From IMG/VR virus record IMGVR_UViG_3300005100_000006, positions 1 through 50,367 of that record: a DNA stretch of 50,367 bases; one strand, given 5' to 3'. Of the stretch, positions 6,343-48,636 are shown in pieces. Position numbers and translations under genes: made by a program. The stretch is from a virus (lineage: Duplodnaviria; Caudoviricetes). How positions within the stretch are numbered: the first letter of the stretch is position 1; the number at the start of each line of letters is the position of its first letter. The notes under the pieces are model-generated. The model saw only the letters and a list, made by a program, of their open reading frames with translations. It searched no databases and was not told where the DNA came from.

Positions 6343-6740
6343 TGAGCATGACGGTAACCAATGTAAATCTTCATGGTGCAATCTTAAACTGTGAAAACGC
6401 GGAAACGTGCAAACTTGACGTATCATCGGCTGAAACACTGGCGGAAGGTCTAATTCTTGCGCGCGATACCTCAACGGGTAACCTTGGCTTTTATGCACGC
6501 GGTGGTTCTAACGGCCTTGACGTGGCACGCTATGTTCTTCTAGCTAATACAGAAGTGACAGCAGCAGACGTAACCGCAACAACTAAAAACGTTCGAGTTA
6601 TGCAAGTCGGCAAAGTTCGCCAGGACAAGATCTCAACCAAGGCGGGCGATGCTATCGACTACCGCGAAGTTGATGGCCTAAAAGACAACTCGATCAGCGT
6701 TCACAACACCACTGATTTCTCAGTGCTTGATAATCAATAG
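6342..6740 (+). CDS. Head decoration protein (gpD-like)
   Basis: 132 aa between protease and capsid; TLAEGLILAR motif. Confidence 0.75.
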   Translation: MSMTVTNVNLHGAILNCENAETCKLDVSSAETLAEGLILARDTSTGNLGFYARGGSNGLDVARYVLLANTEVTAADVTATTKNVRVMQVGKVRQDKISTKAGDAIDYREVDGLKDNSISVHNTTDFSVLDNQ

Positions 6741-6753
6741 GAGCTTGTAAGCT

Positions 6754-14546: not shown

Positions 14547-14563
14547 AAAACAACCGACCGAAG

Positions 14564-14606
14564 AAAAATAGCGGCTTGACTTTAACCAGTTAAGCCGCTA
14601 TTTTTT
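14564..14606 (+). promoter_or_regulatory. Combined terminator and sigma70 promoter for moron 2
   Basis: 17-bp inverted repeat followed by T-run; contains TTGACT(14576)-17-TATTTT. Confidence 0.7.
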
Positions 14607-14635
14607 ATTCACCAATACAAACAGGACCTTTAAAA

Positions 14636-14806
14636 ATGAAAAAAAAACTTACTAGCCTTTTTCTACTCTCATTCGTTTCTCTTTTGCCTCTTCCTTTTAT
14701 TTTTGATTATTCATTTATTGCGGCTGGCGCTTATATTTGTTTCGTTCTTTTGCTTGCAAGCGGGCTTTGGTCTGCAATGAATACTGGAGCCAAAAATGAA
14801 AAATAA
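14636..14806 (+). CDS. Small membrane protein (56 aa, two hydrophobic segments; not in ORF track)
   Basis: AACAGGAC before ATG; MKKKLTSLFLLSFVSLLPLPFIF... Confidence 0.65.
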   Translation: MKKKLTSLFLLSFVSLLPLPFIFDYSFIAAGAYICFVLLLASGLWSAMNTGAKNEK

Positions 14807-14894
14807 ACTCATTTACTGGGGGTTTATCGGATGCCTTAGCCTGGTGCTTTGGTTCGTCGTCATTAATGTGGCTAATAGAAATGGGTGGTTTTGA
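14796..14894 (+). CDS. Small membrane peptide (32 aa; not in ORF track)
   Basis: GGAG SD; MKNKLIYWGFIGCLSLVLWFVVINV...; TGATG-coupled to the next gene. Confidence 0.55.
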   Translation: MKNKLIYWGFIGCLSLVLWFVVINVANRNGWF

Positions 14895-15178
14895 TGATCG
14901 ATTTGATACTGGCAAGCCCCATAATACCAACACCAATAGAGGCAAGGATTTTTGTCGCTATCTGTTGCGCGTACTTAGTTTTTGATTACAGGTCTGATGT
15001 CGAAAGGTCTATAAAATTAAAAAGAAAAAAAATAACAGAAAGGCAAATATTTGATGGTCACAACGAAGTATCTTCAATGATTCACGCGGCCGTAAACACA
15101 ACCCAATTTTGTTGCTTTGAGTTCAGCAAGCAAATGGAAATAATCAGGTTTATAAACAACCGTTATTTGAGCCTTTAA
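14894..15178 (+). CDS. Hypothetical membrane-anchored protein (moron 2)
   Basis: TGATG overlap; hydrophobic N-terminus; AT-rich. Confidence 0.55.
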   Translation: MIDLILASPIIPTPIEARIFVAICCAYLVFDYRSDVERSIKLKRKKITERQIFDGHNEVSSMIHAAVNTTQFCCFEFSKQMEIIRFINNRYLSL

Positions 15179-15184
15179 CCCCCA

Positions 15185-15193
15185 TGCTACAAT
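15185..15193 (+). promoter_or_regulatory. Extended -10 promoter (TGCTACAAT)
   Basis: CATGCTACAATAA also occurs at 18881; lies where structural genes resume. Confidence 0.55.
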
Positions 15194-15223
15194 AACAACA
15201 TTCAAATTATCGAGGGCTAACCA

Positions 15224-16474
15224 ATGCCATGGCAAGACCGACTAACAGATTGCACATACACCGCACCTAGCGGCGCAGTCTTTACGCTTGAATACGAGAA
15301 CGTCAAGCGATCCCAAAAGAAGAAAACCACAACTTTCGAGTTCGTATCTAGTGATGATGTTTACGTGCAGGACAACGGCGTGGGCGCAAAAGTTTTCCCG
15401 CTTGTGGTTTATTTCTCAGGCGAAGACCACGACACAAAGGCCAATGAGTTTTTTGAAGCACTGGCAGAGCGTGGAGCTGGCGAGCTACAGCATCCTATCT
15501 ATGGCGTGCGAACCGTTAACGTCACAGACAAGGTTGAACAAGTAGACAACTTAAAAAGCGGAGCCAATCAAAGCGCCTTTACCATTACTTTTATTGAGAC
15601 CATCACCGACCTTTACCCGTCCGCGCAGGAAAACGCAGACGAGGCAAACAAAAAAGCTAGTGATGATTTCGACGCAGCAAAAGCCGAAGAGTTTGAGAAA
15701 GGCGTCGAGCTTGAAACCGTAGCCGAAGAACAATCATTGATTGAACAGATTAATGATAAAGTTGGATCGGTCGAAGAGGCAATTAAACCGCTCGTTGATG
15801 GCACAGCAGACGCGGAGCGATTCGCCAACGACTTGACCAACTCGATCACCAACGGCATTGACGTTCTTATTGGCACGCCTACAACACTAGCCTTTCAGTG
15901 CACGCAGCTTGTAAAGACTGGCGCGAATGCGTTTTCGTTAATCGGTGACAAGCTAGAAGCCTATGGCGATCTGCTTAGTGATATTGTTTCACCAGACAAA
16001 ACAACCACAACGCCAACCTACAACAACGTAGGCGCGAACACTGTACAAACACAAGATCTGTTTGCAGCGTCCGAAGTGTCCGCCGTTGCTTTGAGTATTG
16101 CAAACGAAGACTTTGAGACGCGAGAAGAAGCACTGAGCGCGGCGGAGTCGCTGCAAGAGTCGTTTTTTGACTATTCCGAATGGAAGGACCGAAACACCGC
16201 AGCGGTGGGAATTGAAGACGAGGGCCAAGGTTATGAGGCTTTACTTGCGCAAGTCACGCTTGCTGTATCTAGCACTATCAACAGCGCTATTGGGTTGCAG
16301 CGTATGCGCAACGTGGTACTTGATAGAGATATGCTAGTTCTAGACTTTGCTTATCAGTATTTTGGCACAACTGAAAGCGCAGCGGTTGAGAAAGTGATCT
16401 TAATGAACAACCTCGACAACGAGGAAATTTGGACGATTCCAAAGGGGCGCTTGATGCGTTATTTGGTGGATTAG
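15224..16474 (+). CDS. DNA circularization/tail initiator protein (Mu gpN-like)
   Basis: MPWQDRL, YVQDNG and GELQHPIYG motifs; C-terminal LysM-like segment. Confidence 0.85.
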   Translation: MPWQDRLTDCTYTAPSGAVFTLEYENVKRSQKKKTTTFEFVSSDDVYVQDNGVGAKVFPLVVYFSGEDHDTKANEFFEALAERGAGELQHPIYGVRTVNVTDKVEQVDNLKSGANQSAFTITFIETITDLYPSAQENADEANKKASDDFDAAKAEEFEKGVELETVAEEQSLIEQINDKVGSVEEAIKPLVDGTADAERFANDLTNSITNGIDVLIGTPTTLAFQCTQLVKTGANAFSLIGDKLEAYGDLLSDIVSPDKTTTTPTYNNVGANTVQTQDLFAASEVSAVALSIANEDFETREEALSAAESLQESFFDYSEWKDRNTAAVGIEDEGQGYEALLAQVTLAVSSTINSAIGLQRMRNVVLDRDMLVLDFAYQYFGTTESAAVEKVILMNNLDNEEIWTIPKGRLMRYLVD

Positions 16475-17686
16475 ATGACAACCCACACCATAAAGCCTGG
16501 CGAAAGTTACGAAGACATATCACGCCAGCAATACGGCACAGAAGAAGGCGCCGACACTCTCAAGAAGTCGAACCCGAGCGCAGGTGACACGCCCGCAGCG
16601 GGTAGCACTTTGTTTGTGCCAAAGACCAAAACCAAAACCAAAATTAACCCAACAAGTGACGTTGTAACGTTGATAATTGGCGAAACCGAGTTTAAAAACT
16701 TCATTGAGATAACTTTAACCCAGCGATTTGATTCCTTCGATACGTGCGACATTATTGCGCCGTTTGAACCAGATAACAGTGAGTTTAGAAAGCTGTTCAA
16801 GCCGTTTAGCTATCAGGATATAGAGGTCTTTATTGGTGACGAGCTGGTTTTTAGCGGTACCCAGATGGGCGTCAATCCGTTTGTTACGCCAGAAAGCAAA
16901 ACCGTTACGCTGTCTGCATACTCTAAATGCGCGGTCATTAATGATTCTTGCGTTCCTATTTCCGCTTATCCGGTAGAGGTGCGAGGCTTTAAGCTCGATC
17001 GCATTGCGAAGGGCATCACGCAAACTTTTCCGTTTGACGTTGTGGTAAGCGCGGACGTTGGCGACTCGTTCAACGTCGCAACTATAAAGCCCAGCAAGAA
17101 AATAGCCCCTTACCTGTTGGAGCTGGCCAAACAGCGCGACATTGTTTTAACTAACGATCTAGACGGTAACCTGTTGCTAACCAAGGCGACCGAATCCGAA
17201 AGCGTGGCGCACATCAAGGGCGATCAACCGCCTATGCTTGGCATTGTTCCGCAATTCAACGAGCAAGAGTATTACAGCGATTACACGGCGATTCTGCCCG
17301 TGATAATCAGGCAAGATCCAACCAGTTACACCGCAAAGAATCGTAAGCTTGCGAACTCGTTACGTGTCGATAACTACATGGCTACCGATTCTTACAACGG
17401 CGATGAGAAAACAGTGGCAGAAAGCCGCAGGGCGCGAGGCATTGCCAATTCAGTGGCTTATACGTGTGCACTGTCTACGCTACGCGATCCGCAAGGTGCG
17501 CTTTATACTGTGAATACGTTTGTGAACATCGAAGCGCCGGAGGCTATGATCTACCGTGATACGAAAATGTTTATCAAAGGCGTTACAATGTCACTTACAC
17601 CAAGCGCCCGCGCGTGCTCGCTTGAACTGACACTGCCAGAGGCTTACAACGGAAAGGACGTGGAGGTGTTACCGTGGGAAGAATAA
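16475..17686 (+). CDS. Baseplate hub protein (Mu gpP-like) with N-terminal LysM
   Basis: HTIKPGESYEDISRQQYG LysM; DLDGNLLL motif; synteny. Confidence 0.85.
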   Translation: MTTHTIKPGESYEDISRQQYGTEEGADTLKKSNPSAGDTPAAGSTLFVPKTKTKTKINPTSDVVTLIIGETEFKNFIEITLTQRFDSFDTCDIIAPFEPDNSEFRKLFKPFSYQDIEVFIGDELVFSGTQMGVNPFVTPESKTVTLSAYSKCAVINDSCVPISAYPVEVRGFKLDRIAKGITQTFPFDVVVSADVGDSFNVATIKPSKKIAPYLLELAKQRDIVLTNDLDGNLLLTKATESESVAHIKGDQPPMLGIVPQFNEQEYYSDYTAILPVIIRQDPTSYTAKNRKLANSLRVDNYMATDSYNGDEKTVAESRRARGIANSVAYTCALSTLRDPQGALYTVNTFVNIEAPEAMIYRDTKMFIKGVTMSLTPSARACSLELTLPEAYNGKDVEVLPWEE

Positions 17687-18309
17687 CCCGAGCGCTTAGC
17701 GTCATTGGCGAAAGAATCAAAGCCCTAGCCGACGCGGGCGATATAAACGAAATGGAACATTTGCAGCCACTAGGCGACGACTCGAAGCCATTGCCGCAGG
17801 ATGATGGATGGAGCGACCGCACAAACCAAAGCGGGGGCGATGTTTATTTTGGTGCGTTTGACTATGAGAACAAGATTGCAGAGCCAGGGGAAAAGCGGAC
17901 GTATGCCCGAGACGCCGACGGCAATCCAGTTAGCCACGTTTATCAGAAGAAAGACGGCACTATCATTATTGCCAATGATAGCTACAGCAAGACGATAAAC
18001 CCCGACGGCTCTTTTGTTGAGACTAACGGCACTTACTCAAAAAACGTTAGCGCCGATGGCTCGTTTACTGAGACGAATGGGGCGTATACCAAGACGGTGG
18101 CCACAAGTGGCGAGGTCAATATCAACGGGTTTGTTATCGGACCAGATGGATCGGCGTCTTCACCGGTTAGCGTTACAGCTCCAACAATCAGCGGCACAAG
18201 TTCGCTAGTGGTGTCAGGCAAAGAGCAGAAAGACCACACGCACACAGTCGGAACGTATAAGGACGCGGAAGGCAGACCGATTACGGGCGACAGTGGTACG
18301 CAGAGTTAA
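17674..18309 (+). CDS. Baseplate spike protein (gp45/gpV-like)
   Basis: PGEKRTY motif, beta repeats, C-terminal HTH (HxH iron-binding) motif. Confidence 0.85.
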   Translation: MGRITRALSVIGERIKALADAGDINEMEHLQPLGDDSKPLPQDDGWSDRTNQSGGDVYFGAFDYENKIAEPGEKRTYARDADGNPVSHVYQKKDGTIIIANDSYSKTINPDGSFVETNGTYSKNVSADGSFTETNGAYTKTVATSGEVNINGFVIGPDGSASSPVSVTAPTISGTSSLVVSGKEQKDHTHTVGTYKDAEGRPITGDSGTQS

Positions 18310-18325
18310 TTAAATAAAAAACGGC

Positions 18326-18354
18326 TTGACTTTAACCGGTCAAGCTTTTATCGT
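18326..18354 (+). promoter_or_regulatory. Sigma70 promoter with dyad for moron 3
   Basis: TTGACT-17-TATCGT; GCTTGAC/GTCAAGC inverted repeat. Confidence 0.65.
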
Positions 18355-18380
18355 TTAGGCTCATTTAACAAACAGGACAA

Positions 18381-18581
18381 ATGAAAATGAAAGACTCAAT
18401 GTTTGACTGTAGTAACCTCGAGTACGGCATTAAATACGACATCACCACCCACAGCGGTCAAGTTTATCGCGGTTGGTATCTTTACAGCCAAGAGTGCGGC
18501 TATTTTTCCAAGAAAGAAGGAAGCCAACTAGAAGGATTTTTATATTCTGAATCTGTAGCATCGGTGAAGGAGAGTGATTGA
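18381..18581 (+). CDS. Hypothetical protein (moron 3)
   Basis: AACAGGAC upstream; start may be 18387. Confidence 0.65.
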   Translation: MKMKDSMFDCSNLEYGIKYDITTHSGQVYRGWYLYSQECGYFSKKEGSQLEGFLYSESVASVKESD

Positions 18582-18739
18582 TGTTCAAAAAATACAAAGC
18601 ACATGTTTTTTGTGAAGTATGCGAATTTCACTTTTCTATTCACGCGGGCAATCCAAGAGTAAATAAAACAGTAAAAACGCATTGCCCACATTGCAAAGAG
18701 TTGCGCCCTGCATACATATACAAAGCAGAGGAGAAGTGA
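18581..18739 (+). CDS. Small zinc-ribbon protein (52 aa; not in ORF track)
   Basis: CEVC...CPHC; AGGAG SD; TGATG overlap. Confidence 0.65.
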   Translation: MFKKYKAHVFCEVCEFHFSIHAGNPRVNKTVKTHCPHCKELRPAYIYKAEEK

Positions 18740-18742
18740 TTG

Positions 18743-18850
18743 ATGAGTAAATTGGAAAATTTAAGCATTGGTTGGTTTTTGGTTGCATTTTATTCCGTTG
18801 GAATATTGATTGCGTTAGCTAGTCTTTGGTTTGATGGATTCTTTAATTAA
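18743..18850 (+). CDS. Small membrane peptide (35 aa; not in ORF track)
   Basis: GAGGAG SD; IGWFLVAFYSVGILIALASLWF. Confidence 0.55.
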   Translation: MSKLENLSIGWFLVAFYSVGILIALASLWFDGFFN

Positions 18851-18896
18851 AACTCGCGCCCAATTCATTTAACTCAATAACATGCTACAATAAAAA

Positions 18897-18956
18897 CTCA
18901 TTGTAGATTTAAGCTCCTGTAATGACGAACTAGCCCGCCTAACCGCGGGCTTTTTT
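18897..18956 (+). ncRNA. Candidate ~60-nt small RNA with an anti-SD sequence
   Basis: TGCTACAAT extended -10 at 18883-18891, 5' hairpin 18898-18925, terminator 18932-18956; no plus-strand ORF. Confidence 0.45.
18932..18956 (+). terminator. Intrinsic terminator
   Basis: AGCCCGC-ctaacc-GCGGGCT followed by T-run. Confidence 0.85.
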
Positions 18957-18996
18957 GTTGGTGTATACTTACGCAAACACATTAAAAGGTTACCCC

Positions 18997-19428
18997 ATGC
19001 CAAAACAAACACCGACACAAGAAGGCGACGTTTTACTTTTCCAGACGCTAGACGATGGCGACCTGTCTATCACCGAAGGCATTGTGGAAATGACCGGCGG
19101 ACTAGAGACAGCGGTTTATCTTTCGCTATTCTCGCCAGAGGACTGGTTTTGCAATGAAGCGGCACAAACGCCAGAGCATCGACTCACATCAAGAACCAAC
19201 GACTTTATAAACAATAAGCCGCAATCCTCGAAAAACTATCAGCTATTAGTGCAAGCGGTCGAAGCCGATCTGAAATGGCTAACCAAAGACAAGCTGGCCA
19301 AATCGGTTAGCGCGTCCGTTTCTTCCGACGGCTTAAATCGTGTTATGATTGGGGTAGTAATTGAGCAGGATTCCAGCTCAACTAATCTTAATATACCAGT
19401 TGAGTGGGGAACCCGAGCAAATGGCTAG
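18997..19428 (+). CDS. Baseplate wedge protein (Mu gp46-like)
   Basis: GLETAVYLSLF and DLKWL motifs. Confidence 0.8.
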   Translation: MPKQTPTQEGDVLLFQTLDDGDLSITEGIVEMTGGLETAVYLSLFSPEDWFCNEAAQTPEHRLTSRTNDFINNKPQSSKNYQLLVQAVEADLKWLTKDKLAKSVSASVSSDGLNRVMIGVVIEQDSSSTNLNIPVEWGTRANG

Positions 19429-20614
19429 AACAATCAAAGAGATCTCAAACTCAATCATTTCTCAGCTTGAGTCTACGCTAAACCAAAAAATACCACTGCT
19501 TAAAAAGTCCTTTATGCGAGCGCACAGCCAAGCAACGGCAAGCGTGTTTGTGATGCTTGAGCATTACGCCGTATTTATGAATAAACAGTGGTTTGTTTCT
19601 GTGTGTTCAGATCAAGACATCAAGGTTTTAGGCGTAACAGTTAACCCGCTTGGCTTTTGGGGCGACCTGATTGGTGTATCACCACAAAAGCAAGGGCAAC
19701 GCGCAGAGCACACCGTTAGCGTGACCGTTGAGCAACTAGGCGGCACGTTGAACGCTGGTACGCAGTTGCAGTCTTCCCAAAACGGCTTTACTTACATCAC
19801 CACGCAAGCGTATTTGCTCGATACCAACCCGATCACAATTAGCGTAAAAGCGGCAGACGATCCAACCTTTAACAATGGTATAGGCGCAACCGGTAACCTA
19901 GCCAATGGCGCCGAGTTGTCTTTTGTTAACCCGCTTGCGCAAGTTGGCAAAATCGCCACCGTAACCAGTCAATTGGTAACAGGTGCCGATCCAGAAACAA
20001 GCCAAAGCTATCGAAAGCGAGTGCAAAAAGCTTTTCGTAGACGCAAGCAAGGCGGGGCTATGGTTGACTATCAATCATGGGGCGAAGAGGTGCCAGGCAT
20101 ATCGAACGTTTACCCTTACACTGGCGCACCCATGGAAGTGGATAATTTTGTTGAAGCCACGCCAGAAAGCAGCGGAAGCGCTGACGGTATCCCAACGCCT
20201 ACGCAGCTAGAGCAGGTAAAGCAGTCTATCGAATACGACAGCAACGGCAAAGCGTCACGCCGTCCGGTTGGCGTGTTTGTGAATGTTTACCCAATCAGGC
20301 GCACCGGATTTAATGTGTTTGTTTCTGGCCTTATAGCAAGCAATGAGGCGCAAGTTAAAACCCAAATAGAAAACGGGGTGCGTGATTTCTTCCTTGATGC
20401 TGAGCCGTTTATTACTGGCTTATCGGTACCACCGCGCAAAGACTCAATTTCTAAGATAGCGGTTGAAGGTGTGATCAATGATATTGTTCGAGCCAATAAC
20501 GCCAGCTTTTTGGGCGCGTCTATCTTCAAGTATGCGGACAATTCGCCCGTAGAGCTCGCTTATCAGCTTGAAAAAGGCGAGAAAGCCAAAGCGGTGACGG
20601 TGGAGTTTGTTTAG
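19421..20614 (+). CDS. Baseplate J-like protein (Mu gp47)
   Basis: GADPET..YRKRV....QGGA..DY..W..EVPG motif. Confidence 0.9.
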   Translation: MARTIKEISNSIISQLESTLNQKIPLLKKSFMRAHSQATASVFVMLEHYAVFMNKQWFVSVCSDQDIKVLGVTVNPLGFWGDLIGVSPQKQGQRAEHTVSVTVEQLGGTLNAGTQLQSSQNGFTYITTQAYLLDTNPITISVKAADDPTFNNGIGATGNLANGAELSFVNPLAQVGKIATVTSQLVTGADPETSQSYRKRVQKAFRRRKQGGAMVDYQSWGEEVPGISNVYPYTGAPMEVDNFVEATPESSGSADGIPTPTQLEQVKQSIEYDSNGKASRRPVGVFVNVYPIRRTGFNVFVSGLIASNEAQVKTQIENGVRDFFLDAEPFITGLSVPPRKDSISKIAVEGVINDIVRANNASFLGASIFKYADNSPVELAYQLEKGEKAKAVTVEFV

Positions 20615-20615
20615 T

Positions 20616-21389
20616 ATGAGCATAATCAAACTATGGAAAACATCCTTACCACAAAGCCGCGCGTTTAGTCTTATCGTAACCAAGACCATGCGCCGATTTT
20701 ATGAGGGCTTGACCTACCCGCAGTATTATCGCGACTTGTTCGATAAGACCTATAAAGAATTAGATCCACAAGCCACAACTCAGCTCGAGCGCTGGGAAAG
20801 TCAATTTTATCTACCTTCCAGCGGATTAACCGAGCAGCAAAGACGGGATCGACTCGAGACCACTTGGAAAATGACAGGCGGGCAAAGCCCCGCATACTTG
20901 CAAAACATCCTTCGAGGTTATGGGTTTGATGTTTATGTTTATGATTGGTGGATGCCAGAAGCTCAAGTGATAAAGCTTACTATGGGTAACGACAATGCAT
21001 TCATGGGCGGTGATGGCGCTTTCATGGGTGCAAGCTCGAGCGCTTTTCCTGTCCCTTGGAATCCCAACGATTTGCTAGTCGATCCGTACTATCCACTCGT
21101 TAACCGGACAGCAACGACCAACTATAGATCTGTTACAATGGGAAGTGATGGCGGCTTCATGGGCGGCGATGTTGCTTATATGGGCGCGCTAGATAAAGTG
21201 GAAAGCGGCGACTATTACCCAATCCCAAGCGATCCAGTTAAATGGCGTGGCTTTGTGTATGTGGCGGGCGAGACAATGCCAAACGCCGCAAGTGTACCGC
21301 TAGAGCGAAAGGCAGAATTTGAAGAGCTAATTTTGTCGATATTCCCAGCCGATAAATGGGTGGGCGTTATAGTTGATTTTACAGAATAG
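20616..21389 (+). CDS. Baseplate wedge protein (Mu gp48-like)
   Basis: LP..RAF, LERWE, RRDRL and GGQS..YL motifs. Confidence 0.75.
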   Translation: MSIIKLWKTSLPQSRAFSLIVTKTMRRFYEGLTYPQYYRDLFDKTYKELDPQATTQLERWESQFYLPSSGLTEQQRRDRLETTWKMTGGQSPAYLQNILRGYGFDVYVYDWWMPEAQVIKLTMGNDNAFMGGDGAFMGASSSAFPVPWNPNDLLVDPYYPLVNRTATTNYRSVTMGSDGGFMGGDVAYMGALDKVESGDYYPIPSDPVKWRGFVYVAGETMPNAASVPLERKAEFEELILSIFPADKWVGVIVDFTE

Positions 21390-31181: not shown

Positions 31182-31328
31182 CTATAGAAAAAATGAAAGC
31201 GCAACGCCGTAAAGCGTAATTAAGAAGATGTTAAAAGCTAAATGTTTAGGCTTTTGTTCTGGCTTCTTTTCCCACTTCCAGATCCAGCCATTGTGGTAAA
31301 TTATTAGTCTGTGCGTGAATAGCTTCAC
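31182..31328 (-). CDS. Small membrane protein (48 aa; not in ORF track)
   Basis: GTG overlapping the holin TAG; GAGGGG SD; C-terminal TM (FNIFLITLYGVALSFFL). Confidence 0.45.
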   Translation of the reverse strand: MKLFTHRLIIYHNGWIWKWEKKPEQKPKHLAFNIFLITLYGVALSFFL

Positions 31329-31681
31329 TATTTCCCCCTCTTCACTGAATCAACAATTCCCCCGGTAAAGTACCACCCCATAACGAGTAACATTAGGTAA
31401 CCAAGTTCAAACTGTGCCGCGAGCGAAACAAGCCCGTCTAGTTGTTCGGAAGTACCAAACAAGTGAACGCCAACACACGCCCACATAAGCGCAAAAAAGT
31501 TAATGCAGACCGCAAAAGCTAGAAAGCGCTGTGCAAGCTTGAAAGGTTCGTACAGCTTCAACAGGTCTTTTTTTGCCGCCGTCTTTTCTTCGTCGGTGTG
31601 AAACATGGCATCGATTGAATTGATACCCGCGTCAATTACTTTGGATGAGCCAAAGATTTTTCCTATTAGGTTGGTTAGCAT
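31328..31681 (-). CDS. Holin (3TM/GTA-holin-like family)
   Basis: ID.MFHTDEEK motif, TM segments, GWYF.G; overlaps the endolysin. Confidence 0.8.
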   Translation of the reverse strand: MLTNLIGKIFGSSKVIDAGINSIDAMFHTDEEKTAAKKDLLKLYEPFKLAQRFLAFAVCINFFALMWACVGVHLFGTSEQLDGLVSLAAQFELGYLMLLVMGWYFTGGIVDSVKRGK

Positions 31682-32163
31682 AGTAGATCCCCTAATTTCT
31701 TATAAAACTTAACCGCATCGTTTTCACGGTACAGATAGACGCGTTTTTTGTTGCCTTGCGCGTCAACTTCGCTGTAACACAGCCACACCAAGCGCCCTTT
31801 GCGGCTGTCAATGTGGATCATTGGTTTGTTAGTGTCGAAGTAAATACCAATGCCACCAATGGCTGGTATTTGCTCCGCTGTTAGCATGGCGTGGATCATT
31901 CGTCCAACGCTCGACACTTGCAGATCGGTAGCCGTTGAAAGTCGGGTGCCGCCTTTTGTGTTGTGCTGGCTTCCGCTTTCGTCGTCGCGAACGTGTGCAC
32001 CAAATAAAGGACTTGGCACCATTGGCGTGCCCGAGCGCTTACGCAGTGGAAAAACGCAGTCGGTGAATAGATCCGCGTCCATGTGCTTTAGCGTGCCGCT
32101 TGGCCACTCGTGTGGCTGCATGTTTTGTGGCCATGCTGATTTTGTTAGTTGGCTGGCTTTCAT
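31675..32163 (-). CDS. Endolysin, peptidase M15 family
   Basis: SQH...ATD and GGIGIY...IHIDSR zinc-peptidase motifs. Confidence 0.85.
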   Translation of the reverse strand: MKASQLTKSAWPQNMQPHEWPSGTLKHMDADLFTDCVFPLRKRSGTPMVPSPLFGAHVRDDESGSQHNTKGGTRLSTATDLQVSSVGRMIHAMLTAEQIPAIGGIGIYFDTNKPMIHIDSRKGRLVWLCYSEVDAQGNKKRVYLYRENDAVKFYKKLGDLLC

Positions 32164-32361
32164 CTAAACCCCCGCAATTGCAAAAGAAAGTAGACCAAAG
32201 AAACAAGCCGCGCCGATACACATGAAAACTTTGTCGCCAGTGGTTAGCGGGTTTCGCGGCGCCTCTTGATGTGTGTTTTCGCAGTGGTAGCGCTGCTTGC
32301 TGCGAGCTAGGCCGGTTGATTGGTTGTAAGCGAACTCGATTGTGGTTTCGTGGTTGTGCAT
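32164..32361 (-). CDS. Small protein with a C-terminal TM segment
   Basis: GAGG SD; abuts the endolysin. Confidence 0.55.
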   Translation of the reverse strand: MHNHETTIEFAYNQSTGLARSKQRYHCENTHQEAPRNPLTTGDKVFMCIGAACFFGLLSFAIAGV

Positions 32362-42017: not shown

Positions 42018-42212
42018 ATGAACTGGATAGACGTTAATGAAAAGCTGCCAGAAAAAAACCAATATTGCATCGTATACATGAAAAGACGAGGATTTTCACC
42101 GACTAACGTTATTGTTACGCGTTACAGCAGATACGGCTTTGAGGTTGAAAGCGTCACGCACTGGATGCCTTTACCGGATGCGCCAAATAACCACCAGCAA
42201 ACAGAGAGATAG
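42018..42212 (+). CDS. DUF551-like protein
   Basis: WI.V.EKLPE...VTHWMPLPDAP. Confidence 0.85.
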   Translation: MNWIDVNEKLPEKNQYCIVYMKRRGFSPTNVIVTRYSRYGFEVESVTHWMPLPDAPNNHQQTER

Positions 42213-42548
42213 ATTATGAAAGTAAAAAAGGGTCAAATAGTTGCCTTTTCTGAAGGCGAGTATTCCGATTATACTGTAGAGGCCTTATGTGTAGTTGATA
42301 ATCCTTTTGATTTAGAAGAAATGAAAAACAAATGGATGGATGAGTGCTGTGAGGAATTAACCACCAATATTTACAAGCACAGACCAGAGCGGAAACTTAA
42401 GAGTGGTAAGCCTTCATTTTTAGCTTGGCTTTCAATGAAAATGCTAGTAACAGACATTGATTATATAGAGGTTCACACGGGCTCTTATGGTGAGGTTGAT
42501 GTTACTTTCGATTTAGTCAACCACCAGCAAACAGAGAGATAGATTATG
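42189..42548 (+). repeat. 30-bp perfect direct repeat (42189-42218 and 42519-42548)
   Basis: AACCACCAGCAAACAGAGAGATAGATTATG occurs twice, 330 bp apart. Confidence 0.95.
42216..42542 (+). CDS. Hypothetical protein flanked by direct repeats
   Basis: GEYSDY motif; ORF track. Confidence 0.7.
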   Translation: MKVKKGQIVAFSEGEYSDYTVEALCVVDNPFDLEEMKNKWMDECCEELTTNIYKHRPERKLKSGKPSFLAWLSMKMLVTDIDYIEVHTGSYGEVDVTFDLVNHQQTER

Positions 42549-42701
42549 TTTAATAAGAATTACAAAACTAACGAATCGAGTTTTGCTTATGGCATGTGGT
42601 GGGAAAGGGTTTATTTAAATAATCTCAATTGGACAGATTTTTACAGGAGATTGGTGATAAGGATGAATTACGACCACGCACAACAGATCTCACAGATTTA
42701 A
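42546..42701 (+). CDS. Hypothetical protein (51 aa; not in ORF track)
   Basis: ATG supplied by the second repeat copy; ends before the terminator. Confidence 0.5.
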   Translation: MFNKNYKTNESSFAYGMWWERVYLNNLNWTDFYRRLVIRMNYDHAQQISQI

Positions 42702-45949: not shown

Positions 45950-46265
45950 AACGGTAAATCACCACGGCGGCAGAGACTTGGCGATTTTTATCGTGAAAAG
46001 CCTTGAGTGTCGCAACCGCTCGCTTAAATCAATCAACAGCCTGACATTTGGCAAGCCGGTTAGGAAAACCATTGAGGCCGATATCTACAACCCGCAACAG
46101 TGGATCTTCGAGTGGCTTTGGGATGTTGGAATAATTCAACCGGTTAAGCAAACAAAAACCATCAACGAGCACAAACCTTTCATGCTGGTTGATAATTTAG
46201 AAATGGCGCTGTACGAACTAGACCGCGCAATCGAAAATCAAACCAAACTAAAACAGGACCAATAA
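45924..46265 (+). CDS. Hypothetical protein
   Basis: ORF track; start reset to ATG 45924. Confidence 0.6.
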   Translation: MLNQNIKSKTVNHHGGRDLAIFIVKSLECRNRSLKSINSLTFGKPVRKTIEADIYNPQQWIFEWLWDVGIIQPVKQTKTINEHKPFMLVDNLEMALYELDRAIENQTKLKQDQ

Positions 46266-47488: not shown

Positions 47489-47530
47489 TCAACCAACAGG
47501 AGCAGCCGCCCAAGGGTGGCTGTGATTACC

Positions 47531-48358: not shown

Positions 48359-48636
48359 CTAAAACAGGACTAAACAACATGGGCGAAATGACACAGCAGG
48401 ATTATGACGACAGTTGCGATGGCTTTAAGTTAGAAGTAAATAACCTGGTGAAAAAATCAGGCGAAAACAGTCTTTCAATGGCAATTGCAAAGGGCAACAA
48501 AGAAATTACAACCATGCTTTATCAATTCCAAGAAATGATTAATCCAGCCGTTAATAAACTTGGATTAAAAACTAAATCACTATCTGAAATCTTTGGCGTA
48601 GAAATCAAGCTAACAGCTTACTAAAACAGGACTAAA
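48358..48636 (+). repeat. 17-bp direct repeat (48358-48374 and 48620-48636)
   Basis: ACTAAAACAGGACTAAA twice; the 13-mer core is also at 46247-46259. Confidence 0.9.
48379..48624 (+). CDS. Hypothetical protein inserted between recE and bet
   Basis: AACAGGAC upstream; flanked by repeats. Confidence 0.7.
   Translation: MGEMTQQDYDDSCDGFKLEVNNLVKKSGENSLSMAIAKGNKEITTMLYQFQEMINPAVNKLGLKTKSLSEIFGVEIKLTAY

Follow-up and report, generated by a model that had tools for sequence, protein, structure and literature searches.

A second copy of a restart promoter beside a cargo-slot terminator: a predicted short RNA unit, possibly a by-product of cassette shuffling, in an uncultured phage genome

The window we analyzed is a complete virus record of 50,367 bases from an uncultured phage. 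Its nearest named relatives are Vibrio phages (e.g. vB_VhaS_MAG7 and the 1.087.A group, at ~71–74% DNA identity, a figure that applies to the gp46-like gene only). Even the closest relatives we found are distant, with gp46 proteins no more than 84% identical in amino acids. By PHROG and Pfam scans, the gene order is terminase, portal, protease, capsid, sheath, and tube, followed by a Mu-like baseplate run, with replication and recombination genes in the region beyond ~26 kb. No integrase, repressor module, or antiterminator family was found among the 52 proteins scanned (PHROG, E ≤ 1e-5), many of which matched no family; helix-turn-helix regulators are encoded in the genome according to the protein-family scan. 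The set of gene starts used in the target comparisons (73 starts, ORFs of at least 45 aa) came from a crude script of our own, and some of its calls are doubtful.

Inside the Mu-like baseplate run lie two slots that carry variable cargo, slot A (14547–15223) and slot B (18310–18996). Three colinear boundary words are common to both slots: the 16-mer CGGCTTGACTTTAACC, which is a hairpin with an embedded –35, the 11-mer ACAAACAGGAC, which is a start motif, and the 13-mer CATGCTACAATAA, which is the restart promoter. The cargo between these words is unrelated. The 16-mer of the left boundary module of slot B (Table 1) recurs identically in slot A at 14572–14587, and a hairpin related to this module is present in the relative L002. 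Because the three words occur in the same order in both slots, the slot-B cargo has full slot-A-type boundaries. It lies 5′ of the terminator and restart element that belong to slot B itself, and the unit of promoter, 40 nt, and terminator is this junction.

The slot-B cargo consists of three orphan ORFs without a Pfam or PHROG family. In tblastn searches of phages, neither the 66-aa form of the first ORF nor the 52-aa ORF had a match; the 64-aa form of the first ORF had no relative in IMG/VR or in metagenomes, and none of the cargo proteins had a relative in the loci we fetched. We considered whether the slot-B cargo might be a paralogue of the slot-A cargo and rejected this, as the two have no similarity. 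Slot A itself carries small plus-strand ORFs (14637–14880) that are signal-peptide-like or membrane-like and begin at ATG 14637 after the start motif; the crude gene caller had put a doubtful minus-strand ORF (14715–14915) in their place. In the relative L014 (1950–2200, minus strand), a small ORF separates the restart promoter from the hub gene, and the ribosome site GAGGGCTAACCGATGGC is duplicated on both of its sides, which looks like the footprint of a cargo insertion.

The small genes of slot B, which is flanked by the gp45-position and gp46-like genes, differ in all eight related records. In seven of the eight relatives a terminator follows ~10 nt after the last stop codon, and after a gap of ~20 nt come TAGTGTATACTTA and the gp46-like gene; the eighth (L002/L010) has no separate terminator, and a GC-rich hairpin encloses its TAGTGTATACTTA element. 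TAGTGTATACTTA, with up to two mismatches allowed, is found in 9/9 slot-B loci from the eight records, and the 13-mer CATGCTACAATAA in 0/9; the extra promoter and 5′ hairpin of slot B occur in none of the eight relatives. Of note, a TAGTGTATACT element upstream of the gp46-like gene sits within the inverted repeat TTAGTGT...ACACTAA (L002 2440–2500; L005 and L006 ~2050–2100; window 18960–18983), which in L002 becomes a longer, GC-ended hairpin of 11 bp with a T run behind it. The element could serve as a promoter or an operator, or could fold as an RNA hairpin.

Table 1. Genes, boundary modules, and predicted RNA features discussed in the text (coordinates in the window)
Feature	Coordinates	Strand	Description
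DNA-circulation-like / baseplate hub gene	15224–16474	+	PHROG, Pfam
gp44-like hub gene	16475–17686		PHROG/Pfam
Unnamed gene in gp45 position	17674–18309		PHROG/Pfam layout
gp46-like baseplate wedge gene	18997–19428	+	First gene after slot B; phrog_180 at 2.7e-17; homologues found
Baseplate J gene	19421–20614		PHROG/Pfam
gp48-like gene	20616–21389		PHROG/Pfam
Left boundary module of slot B	18323–18354	+	Hairpin GGCTTGACTTTAACCGGTCAAGCT with embedded promoter-like TTGACT-17-TATCGT
Orphan cargo ORF 1	18387–18581	+	64 aa; 66-aa form from ATG 18381; no family
Orphan cargo ORF 2	18581–18739	+	52 aa, CxxC...CxxC; no family
Orphan cargo ORF 3	18743–18850	+	35 aa, hydrophobic; no family
Promoter core, original copy	15183–15195	+	CATGCTACAATAA; 41 nt 5′ of the hub-gene ATG (15224)
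Promoter core, second copy	18881–18893	+	CATGCTACAATAA; identical to 15183–15195
Extended –10 within second copy	18883–18891	+	TGCTACAAT; direct sequence check
Perfect 7-bp inverted repeat	18885–18906	.	CTACAAT-N8-ATTGTAG; overlaps the –10; –5.8 kcal/mol, z –1.0
5′ hairpin of predicted RNA	18898–18925	+	9-bp stem with 2 G–U pairs; 10-nt loop AUUUAAGCUC
Anti-SD stretch	18907–18923	+	AUUUAAGCUCCUGUAAU; capsid SD complementary to 18910–18920, minus-strand mRNA 32178–32162 complementary to the full 17 nt
Intrinsic terminator	18932–18959	+	AGCCCGC-CTAACC-GCGGGCT (stem 18932–18951), then UUUUUUGU
Conserved restart promoter-like element	18960–18969	+	GGTGTATACT (TATACT 18964–18969); 5′ of the gp46-like gene
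SD-to-AUG region of probable endolysin gene	32162–32178	–	17 bp complementary to the candidate RNA
Small ORFs flanking 31678–32163	32167–32361, 31331–31681, 31185–31328		Neighbours

The original prediction held that 18881–18956 encodes a candidate small RNA whose unit looks stand-alone. Checking the sequence directly, we confirmed all of the features it listed, including the loop, the TATACT beyond the terminator, the capsid SD, and the ACAGGAGC word, and likewise the identity of the 13-mers at 15183 and 18881. Agreement between these two copies extends to 17 of 18 positions, plus an upstream word, TTTAAC, which lies at 18868–18873 (+) by the second copy. A second occurrence of one given 13-mer is expected ~0.0015 times by chance in 50 kb on both strands (2 × 50367/4^13). 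The extended –10 9-mer TGCTACAAT is not enriched in the window (six matches with up to one mismatch versus 14.3 expected).

In five of five relatives whose whole records we searched, CATGCTACAATAA occurs once per record (up to one mismatch) and always upstream of the baseplate-hub gene, so that the window alone has two copies. Four of these five relatives carry TCATGCTACAATA ~45 nt upstream of the hub-gene ATG; in the fifth, the core lies 206 nt from the hub-gene ATG, with a small ORF inserted between. A GC-rich hairpin is found immediately upstream of the core in 4/5. The 18881 copy is closer to the window's own 15183 copy than to those of the relatives, which suggests that it arose within this genome. 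Since the core fits the extended –10 consensus and lacks a conserved –35, it is most simply read as a restart promoter after a terminator. An extended –10 promoter requires no phage activator. As judged by its recurrence in the relatives, the core at the 15183 site is real and conserved, and it is the strongest part of the predicted unit. For the predicted RNA, an own promoter is thus present at the level of sequence only, as a copy of a core that is conserved 5/5 elsewhere.

The second strong part is the terminator (–16.1 kcal/mol, z –4.5, 0/200 shuffles as good), a 7-bp GC stem with a U tail in which the T run reads TTTTTTGTT. It begins ~40 nt downstream of the promoter copy, is the positional counterpart of the slot-B terminator found in 7/8 relatives, and is the only terminator before gp46, the last cargo ORF stopping at 18850. 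The stand-alone appearance of the unit therefore holds up part by part: its –10 copies a core conserved in 5/5 relatives, its terminator is positionally matched in 7/8, and the TATACT element beyond it is found at 9/9 loci. The 5′ hairpin fared less well. Its arms, TCATTGTAG (18898–18906) and CTGTAATGA (18917–18925), do form a stem of seven Watson–Crick and two G–U pairs, and they do so in the plus strand only, the minus-strand RNA being without the stem; the hairpin is weak, however, at –4.5 kcal/mol (z –1.22, 25/200 shuffles as good). It is therefore the terminator that gives the complete 62-nt unit its z of –4.0. In an RNA that reads in from upstream, the ATTGTAG arm prefers the CTACAAT of the –10 over its 5′ hairpin partner. 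We considered an attenuator-type switch and rejected it, as the alternative pairings leave the terminator stem uninvolved. Overall, we put it at slightly better than an even chance that an RNA of ~56–62 nt is made from the promoter copy to the terminator.

Conservation of the RNA body was the first point on which the prediction found no support. The body is present at slot B in none of the eight relatives, and in the whole records of five relatives nothing matches it beyond the 13-mer; it has no second occurrence in the window. A blastn search of the intergenic region against 50,697 phage records returned only terminator-like matches to unrelated phages. In IMG/VR, an exact 24-mer of the body had no match, and the pattern CATGCTACAAT-N40–70-GTGTATACT had one, which is unrelated and AT-rich. 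The pattern ATTGTAG-N6-GCTCCTGTAAT had five matches in metagenomes, which we judged to be chance because none of them has a promoter or a terminator. Rfam 15 gave no match at gathering score in the whole window; the best local sub-threshold match was Trp_leader (21.6 bits against a cut-off of 41), the sub-threshold matches being terminator-driven. Because the relatives are distant and the slot is hypervariable, the absence of the body elsewhere is weak evidence against a function. We also asked whether the body could be a diverged 5′ leader of the hub gene, given that here, too, an ATG follows at 41 nt, and rejected this candidate, as local alignment against six leaders gave p 0.09–0.9.

The prediction had further proposed that the anti-SD stretch pairs with the SD of the major capsid gene, with a word upstream of the exonuclease gene, and with the core of the start motifs. 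Pairing with the capsid SD, AUAGGAGCUUG (6737–6747), stands at 11 bp including two G–U pairs. The 8-nt ACAGGAGC is present at 47496–47503, and its role as the SD of the exonuclease gene is uncertain because it lies 13 nt upstream of GTG 47516 and 28 nt upstream of ATG 47531. With the start motif AACAGGAC, only the 6-nt core ACAGGA pairs, and the flanks are mismatched. This motif has 16 copies in the window versus 1.16 expected (0/100 shuffles reach 16; e.g. 18371–18378, 46252–46259, 48363–48370, and 48625–48632), mostly 4–9 nt and most often 8 nt upstream of an ATG, frequently as (A/T)AAACAGGAC-N8-ATG, and it is concentrated in non-structural genes and the first cargo genes. It is a start motif specific to this phage and is longer than a simple SD. 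Separately, identical 22-nt sequences (42194–42215 and 42524–42545) precede the consecutive genes 42216–42542 and 42546–42701, which suggests a tandem duplication.

Across initiation regions, the outcome depended on whether RNA structure was counted. Considering the duplex only, the candidate RNA had a mean of –12.3 versus –10.06 ± 0.63 for 300 dinucleotide shuffles (0.3% as good) and a minimum of –24.0 (2.3% as good), a comparison that mainly restates that the RNA contains CUCCU. When its own structure and that of the target were counted, and the null consisted of 150 34-mers drawn at random from the genome and joined to this terminator, the best cofold ddG over the 73 initiation regions (–14.2) was matched by 52% of the random 34-mers; the mean (–4.05 versus –5.55) was worse than 79% of them, and six targets lay at or below –8 versus a null mean of 14.9. 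Binding of initiation regions in trans is thus no better than for random 34-mers of this genome. Nor did we find any basis for placing the RNA late in infection.

One helix does stand out. The longest contiguous helix comprises 17 bp (12 Watson–Crick and 5 G–U) with 32178–32162 and is reached by 9/1500 random non-antisense windows, a statistic that emerged after several tests; the second-best helix, the 11-bp capsid helix, is reached by 3.6% of the 1500. The same test over 1400 windows that included trivially antisense ones found 2% as good. The isolated duplex energies of the 17-bp helix are –19 to –20 kcal/mol, and after opening costs the net energies are a marginal –6.1 kcal/mol for the endolysin-like target and –6.5 kcal/mol for the capsid. 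Half of the CUCCU is paired, leaving the anti-SD run half buried in the stem, and both helices begin in the loop and need the stem opened. For the seed region, which has UAAGCUC in the loop and CUGU in the stem, opening costs 4.1–4.6 kcal/mol; the stem itself is weak.

The 17-bp helix spans the SD through the AU of the AUG of gene 31678–32163 (minus strand). Its 162-aa product has no Pfam or PHROG match. By their source names, its homologues include a ‘hedgehog signaling/DD-peptidase zinc-binding domain protein’ and ‘YcbK (DUF882)’, the Atlas points towards a cluster of peptidases, 23% of the members of one such cluster carrying Peptidase_M15_3, and H57, H67, D80, H117, and D119 are invariant in 23 sequences. 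The structural model (pLDDT 97.4) aligned best, in a wide structure search with VIA, with LAS zinc peptidases (1lbu, Z 7.4, rmsd 3.6, 108 aligned), followed by Hedgehog N-domains (Z 6.4) and the T5, LysB4, and PLY500 endolysins (Z 5.0); Z values of 5.0–7.4 are middling by the tool's own note, and the top ten rows all belong to one fold family. PDB sequence searches with the single protein and with the 23-sequence profile returned nothing relevant, and Foldseek gave no match to the model at E ≤ 0.001. Given the LAS fold and the small flanking ORFs, gene 31678–32163 probably encodes a lysis-cassette endolysin. A single relative has the gene as well, with a different initiation region.

How should the unit be read? 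In the reading that the original prediction favored, the ~60-nt RNA would act in trans, its CUCCU-containing loop and 3′ arm pairing with the SD regions of phage or host mRNAs and so tuning translation. A promoter–hairpin–terminator build with a U tail, the capsid and endolysin helices, and the better-than-shuffle pairing all point this way. Weighing more heavily, in our view, are the cofold scores, which do not exceed those of random 34-mers in best value, mean, or count, the small net energies, the half-paired CUCCU, the 6-bp limit on pairing with AACAGGAC, the presence of the body in 0/8 relatives, the different initiation region of the endolysin-like gene in the single relative that has it, and the post hoc nature of the rare-helix statistic, so that we consider a trans-acting anti-SD regulator unlikely. 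Neither conservation nor energetics that account for structure supports a dedicated regulator of this kind, which survives as a minority view through the endolysin helix. A role in cis seems similarly doubtful. Here the promoter would be an extra one that feeds gp46 and the downstream baseplate genes by read-through, or the stretch would be the 3′ UTR of the cargo operon and protect the mRNA end. The strong, canonical terminator speaks against a role in cis, no alternative fold competes with its stem, and, because a conserved restart element adjoins it directly on the 3′ side, extra read-through seems unnecessary. This must be set against the facts that the same promoter core precedes baseplate genes at slot A, that the predicted fold with upstream sequence is the CTACAAT/ATTGTAG hairpin and then the terminator, and that the terminator occupies the position of the cargo terminator in relatives.

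Three further readings dispense with a regulatory RNA of this kind or assign it a different job. The palindrome CTACAAT-N8-ATTGTAG over the –10 could be the site of a regulator protein, with no functional RNA. A promoter at the centre of a perfect 7-bp inverted repeat, the placement of the relatives' conserved TAGTGTATACT element inside an inverted repeat of its own, and the helix-turn-helix regulators in the genome would fit such an operator, yet a 7-bp repeat is short, the site is not repeated elsewhere in the window, and the 15183 copy and its five homologues are without the palindrome; we hold this reading to be improbable. The original prediction had itself named the decayed start of a minus-strand gene as an alternative. 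The reverse complement does read ACAGGAGC-N11-ATG and opens the 10-codon ORF (18901–18869), which we confirmed, and ACAGGA is the core of the enriched start motif. But ACAGGAG ends 12 nt short of the ATG, outside the range usual for motif-bearing genes, only 6/8 motif positions match, no minus-strand gene occupies the slot in any of the eight relatives, a longer minus-strand ORF (49 aa) crosses the terminator into gp46 and looks like noise, and the exact plus-strand copy of the 13-mer promoter would be left unexplained, all of which makes a decayed gene very improbable. Barely credible, finally, is a lambdoid-style late leader, in which a constitutive promoter yields a short terminated RNA until an antiterminator permits read-in to the tail genes. 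The unit lies well inside the tail module, between the gp45-like and gp46-like genes, rather than ahead of all late genes, is carried by 0/8 relatives, and is followed by a separate restart element; no antiterminator family appeared among the 52 scanned proteins, many of which matched no family. It does have the order of promoter, ~58 nt, and terminator upstream of structural genes. By analogy with lambda, the –10-like words TAGATT and TGTAAT in the initial transcribed region could pause sigma-bound polymerase.

Known small RNAs resemble the unit in part. Type I 3′UTR-derived sRNAs such as DapZ and MicL are transcribed from a promoter of their own, close to where an upstream operon ends, and share its intrinsic terminator, and they are chromosomal and conserved, with mapped seeds. 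The candidate likewise lies after the last operon ORF, shares the operon terminator, and has a predicted promoter of its own; in contrast, this promoter follows the last stop codon rather than lying inside a gene, and the candidate is phage-borne and unconserved. Phage precedents for a base-pairing regulator are VpdS, c4, and PAK_P4as15 (PMC12197685). VpdS of Vibrio phage VP882 is about 50 nt, Hfq-bound, trans-acting, and experimentally supported (PMC12197685); the candidate shares with it a similar size, a phage of a Vibrio host, and the proposed pairing with phage and host mRNAs, whereas the VpdS phage, in that account, is temperate and quorum-sensing-responsive and the candidate is known from sequence only, in a genome in which we saw no integrase or repressor module. 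The c4 RNA of phages P1 and P7 (77 nt) has matched loops and one dedicated mRNA, ant (PMC12197685). It too is a stem-loop RNA whose loop-exposed bases, by the same account, pair around the ribosome binding site and block translation, but the anti-SD run of the candidate is half in the stem, and its targets are only predicted, at ~–6 kcal/mol net. StxS is termination-derived, from the lambdoid PR′–tR′ transcript (PMC12197685), and, as presented there, would share with the candidate a promoter closely before a terminator, upstream of late genes, and the status of a by-product transcript that gained regulatory targets; unlike the candidate on all three counts, StxS belongs to a conserved system that precedes the entire late operon and needs Q antitermination. 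PAK_P4as15 of Pseudomonas phage PAK_P4, described in the same text as a cis-antisense repressor of endolysin translation of about 550 nt (PMC12197685), is likewise a phage RNA proposed to restrain endolysin translation, although it is long and cis-antisense, and any action of the candidate would be in trans, by way of a G–U-rich helix of 17 bp. Lambda PreS is the subject of a further source (10.1101/2024.10.31.621285).

We favor, at a probability of roughly 0.5, the reading that the unit is an orphan promoter–terminator mini-unit created by the shuffling of modular cassette boundaries, and possibly a young sRNA. We observed directly the parts themselves, that they are conserved at other sites, and that their juxtaposition is unique. 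In these Vibrio-type myophages, each slot opens with a hairpin/promoter module (GGCTTGACTTTAACC...) and closes with a terminator and a restart promoter, the latter being CATGCTACAATAA before the hub gene in slot A and TAGTGTATACTTA before gp46 in slot B. In this genome only, the slot-B cargo also ends in a copy of the slot-A restart promoter, which lies 40 nt 5′ of the terminator belonging to slot B. If the parts work as at the conserved sites, host RNA polymerase would start near 18896–18900 and stop near 18955–18958, yielding a 56–62-nt RNA in which an A/U-rich linker joins a weak 5′ hairpin to a strong, U-tailed terminator hairpin. We infer that such an RNA would be a by-product of recent evolutionary origin, able to base-pair weakly at best, and not a dedicated regulator. 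Because the slot-boundary modules are reusable, a promoter–terminator pair can appear here without a selected function. Against the by-product reading, the 17-bp helix is rarer than chance suggests, the duplex-only energies beat those of shuffles, the RNA is built broadly like an Hfq-type sRNA, and its body is not detectably derived from the hub-gene 5′ leader.

A bolder version, which we regard as a long shot, is that the shuffled parts have given rise to a newly born phage sRNA of ~60 nt that pairs with the SD–AUG region of the LAS-fold endolysin gene and with the capsid SD and tunes lysis timing or late translation. If true, it would be an observable de novo birth of a regulatory RNA in a virus. 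An RNA that is both made and active would be a rare sRNA of a lytic-type marine phage and a clean case of a regulatory RNA gene built from reused promoter and terminator parts. The architecture is the more solid gain: variable cargo in fixed slots, bounded by reusable hairpin/promoter, terminator, and restart-promoter modules.
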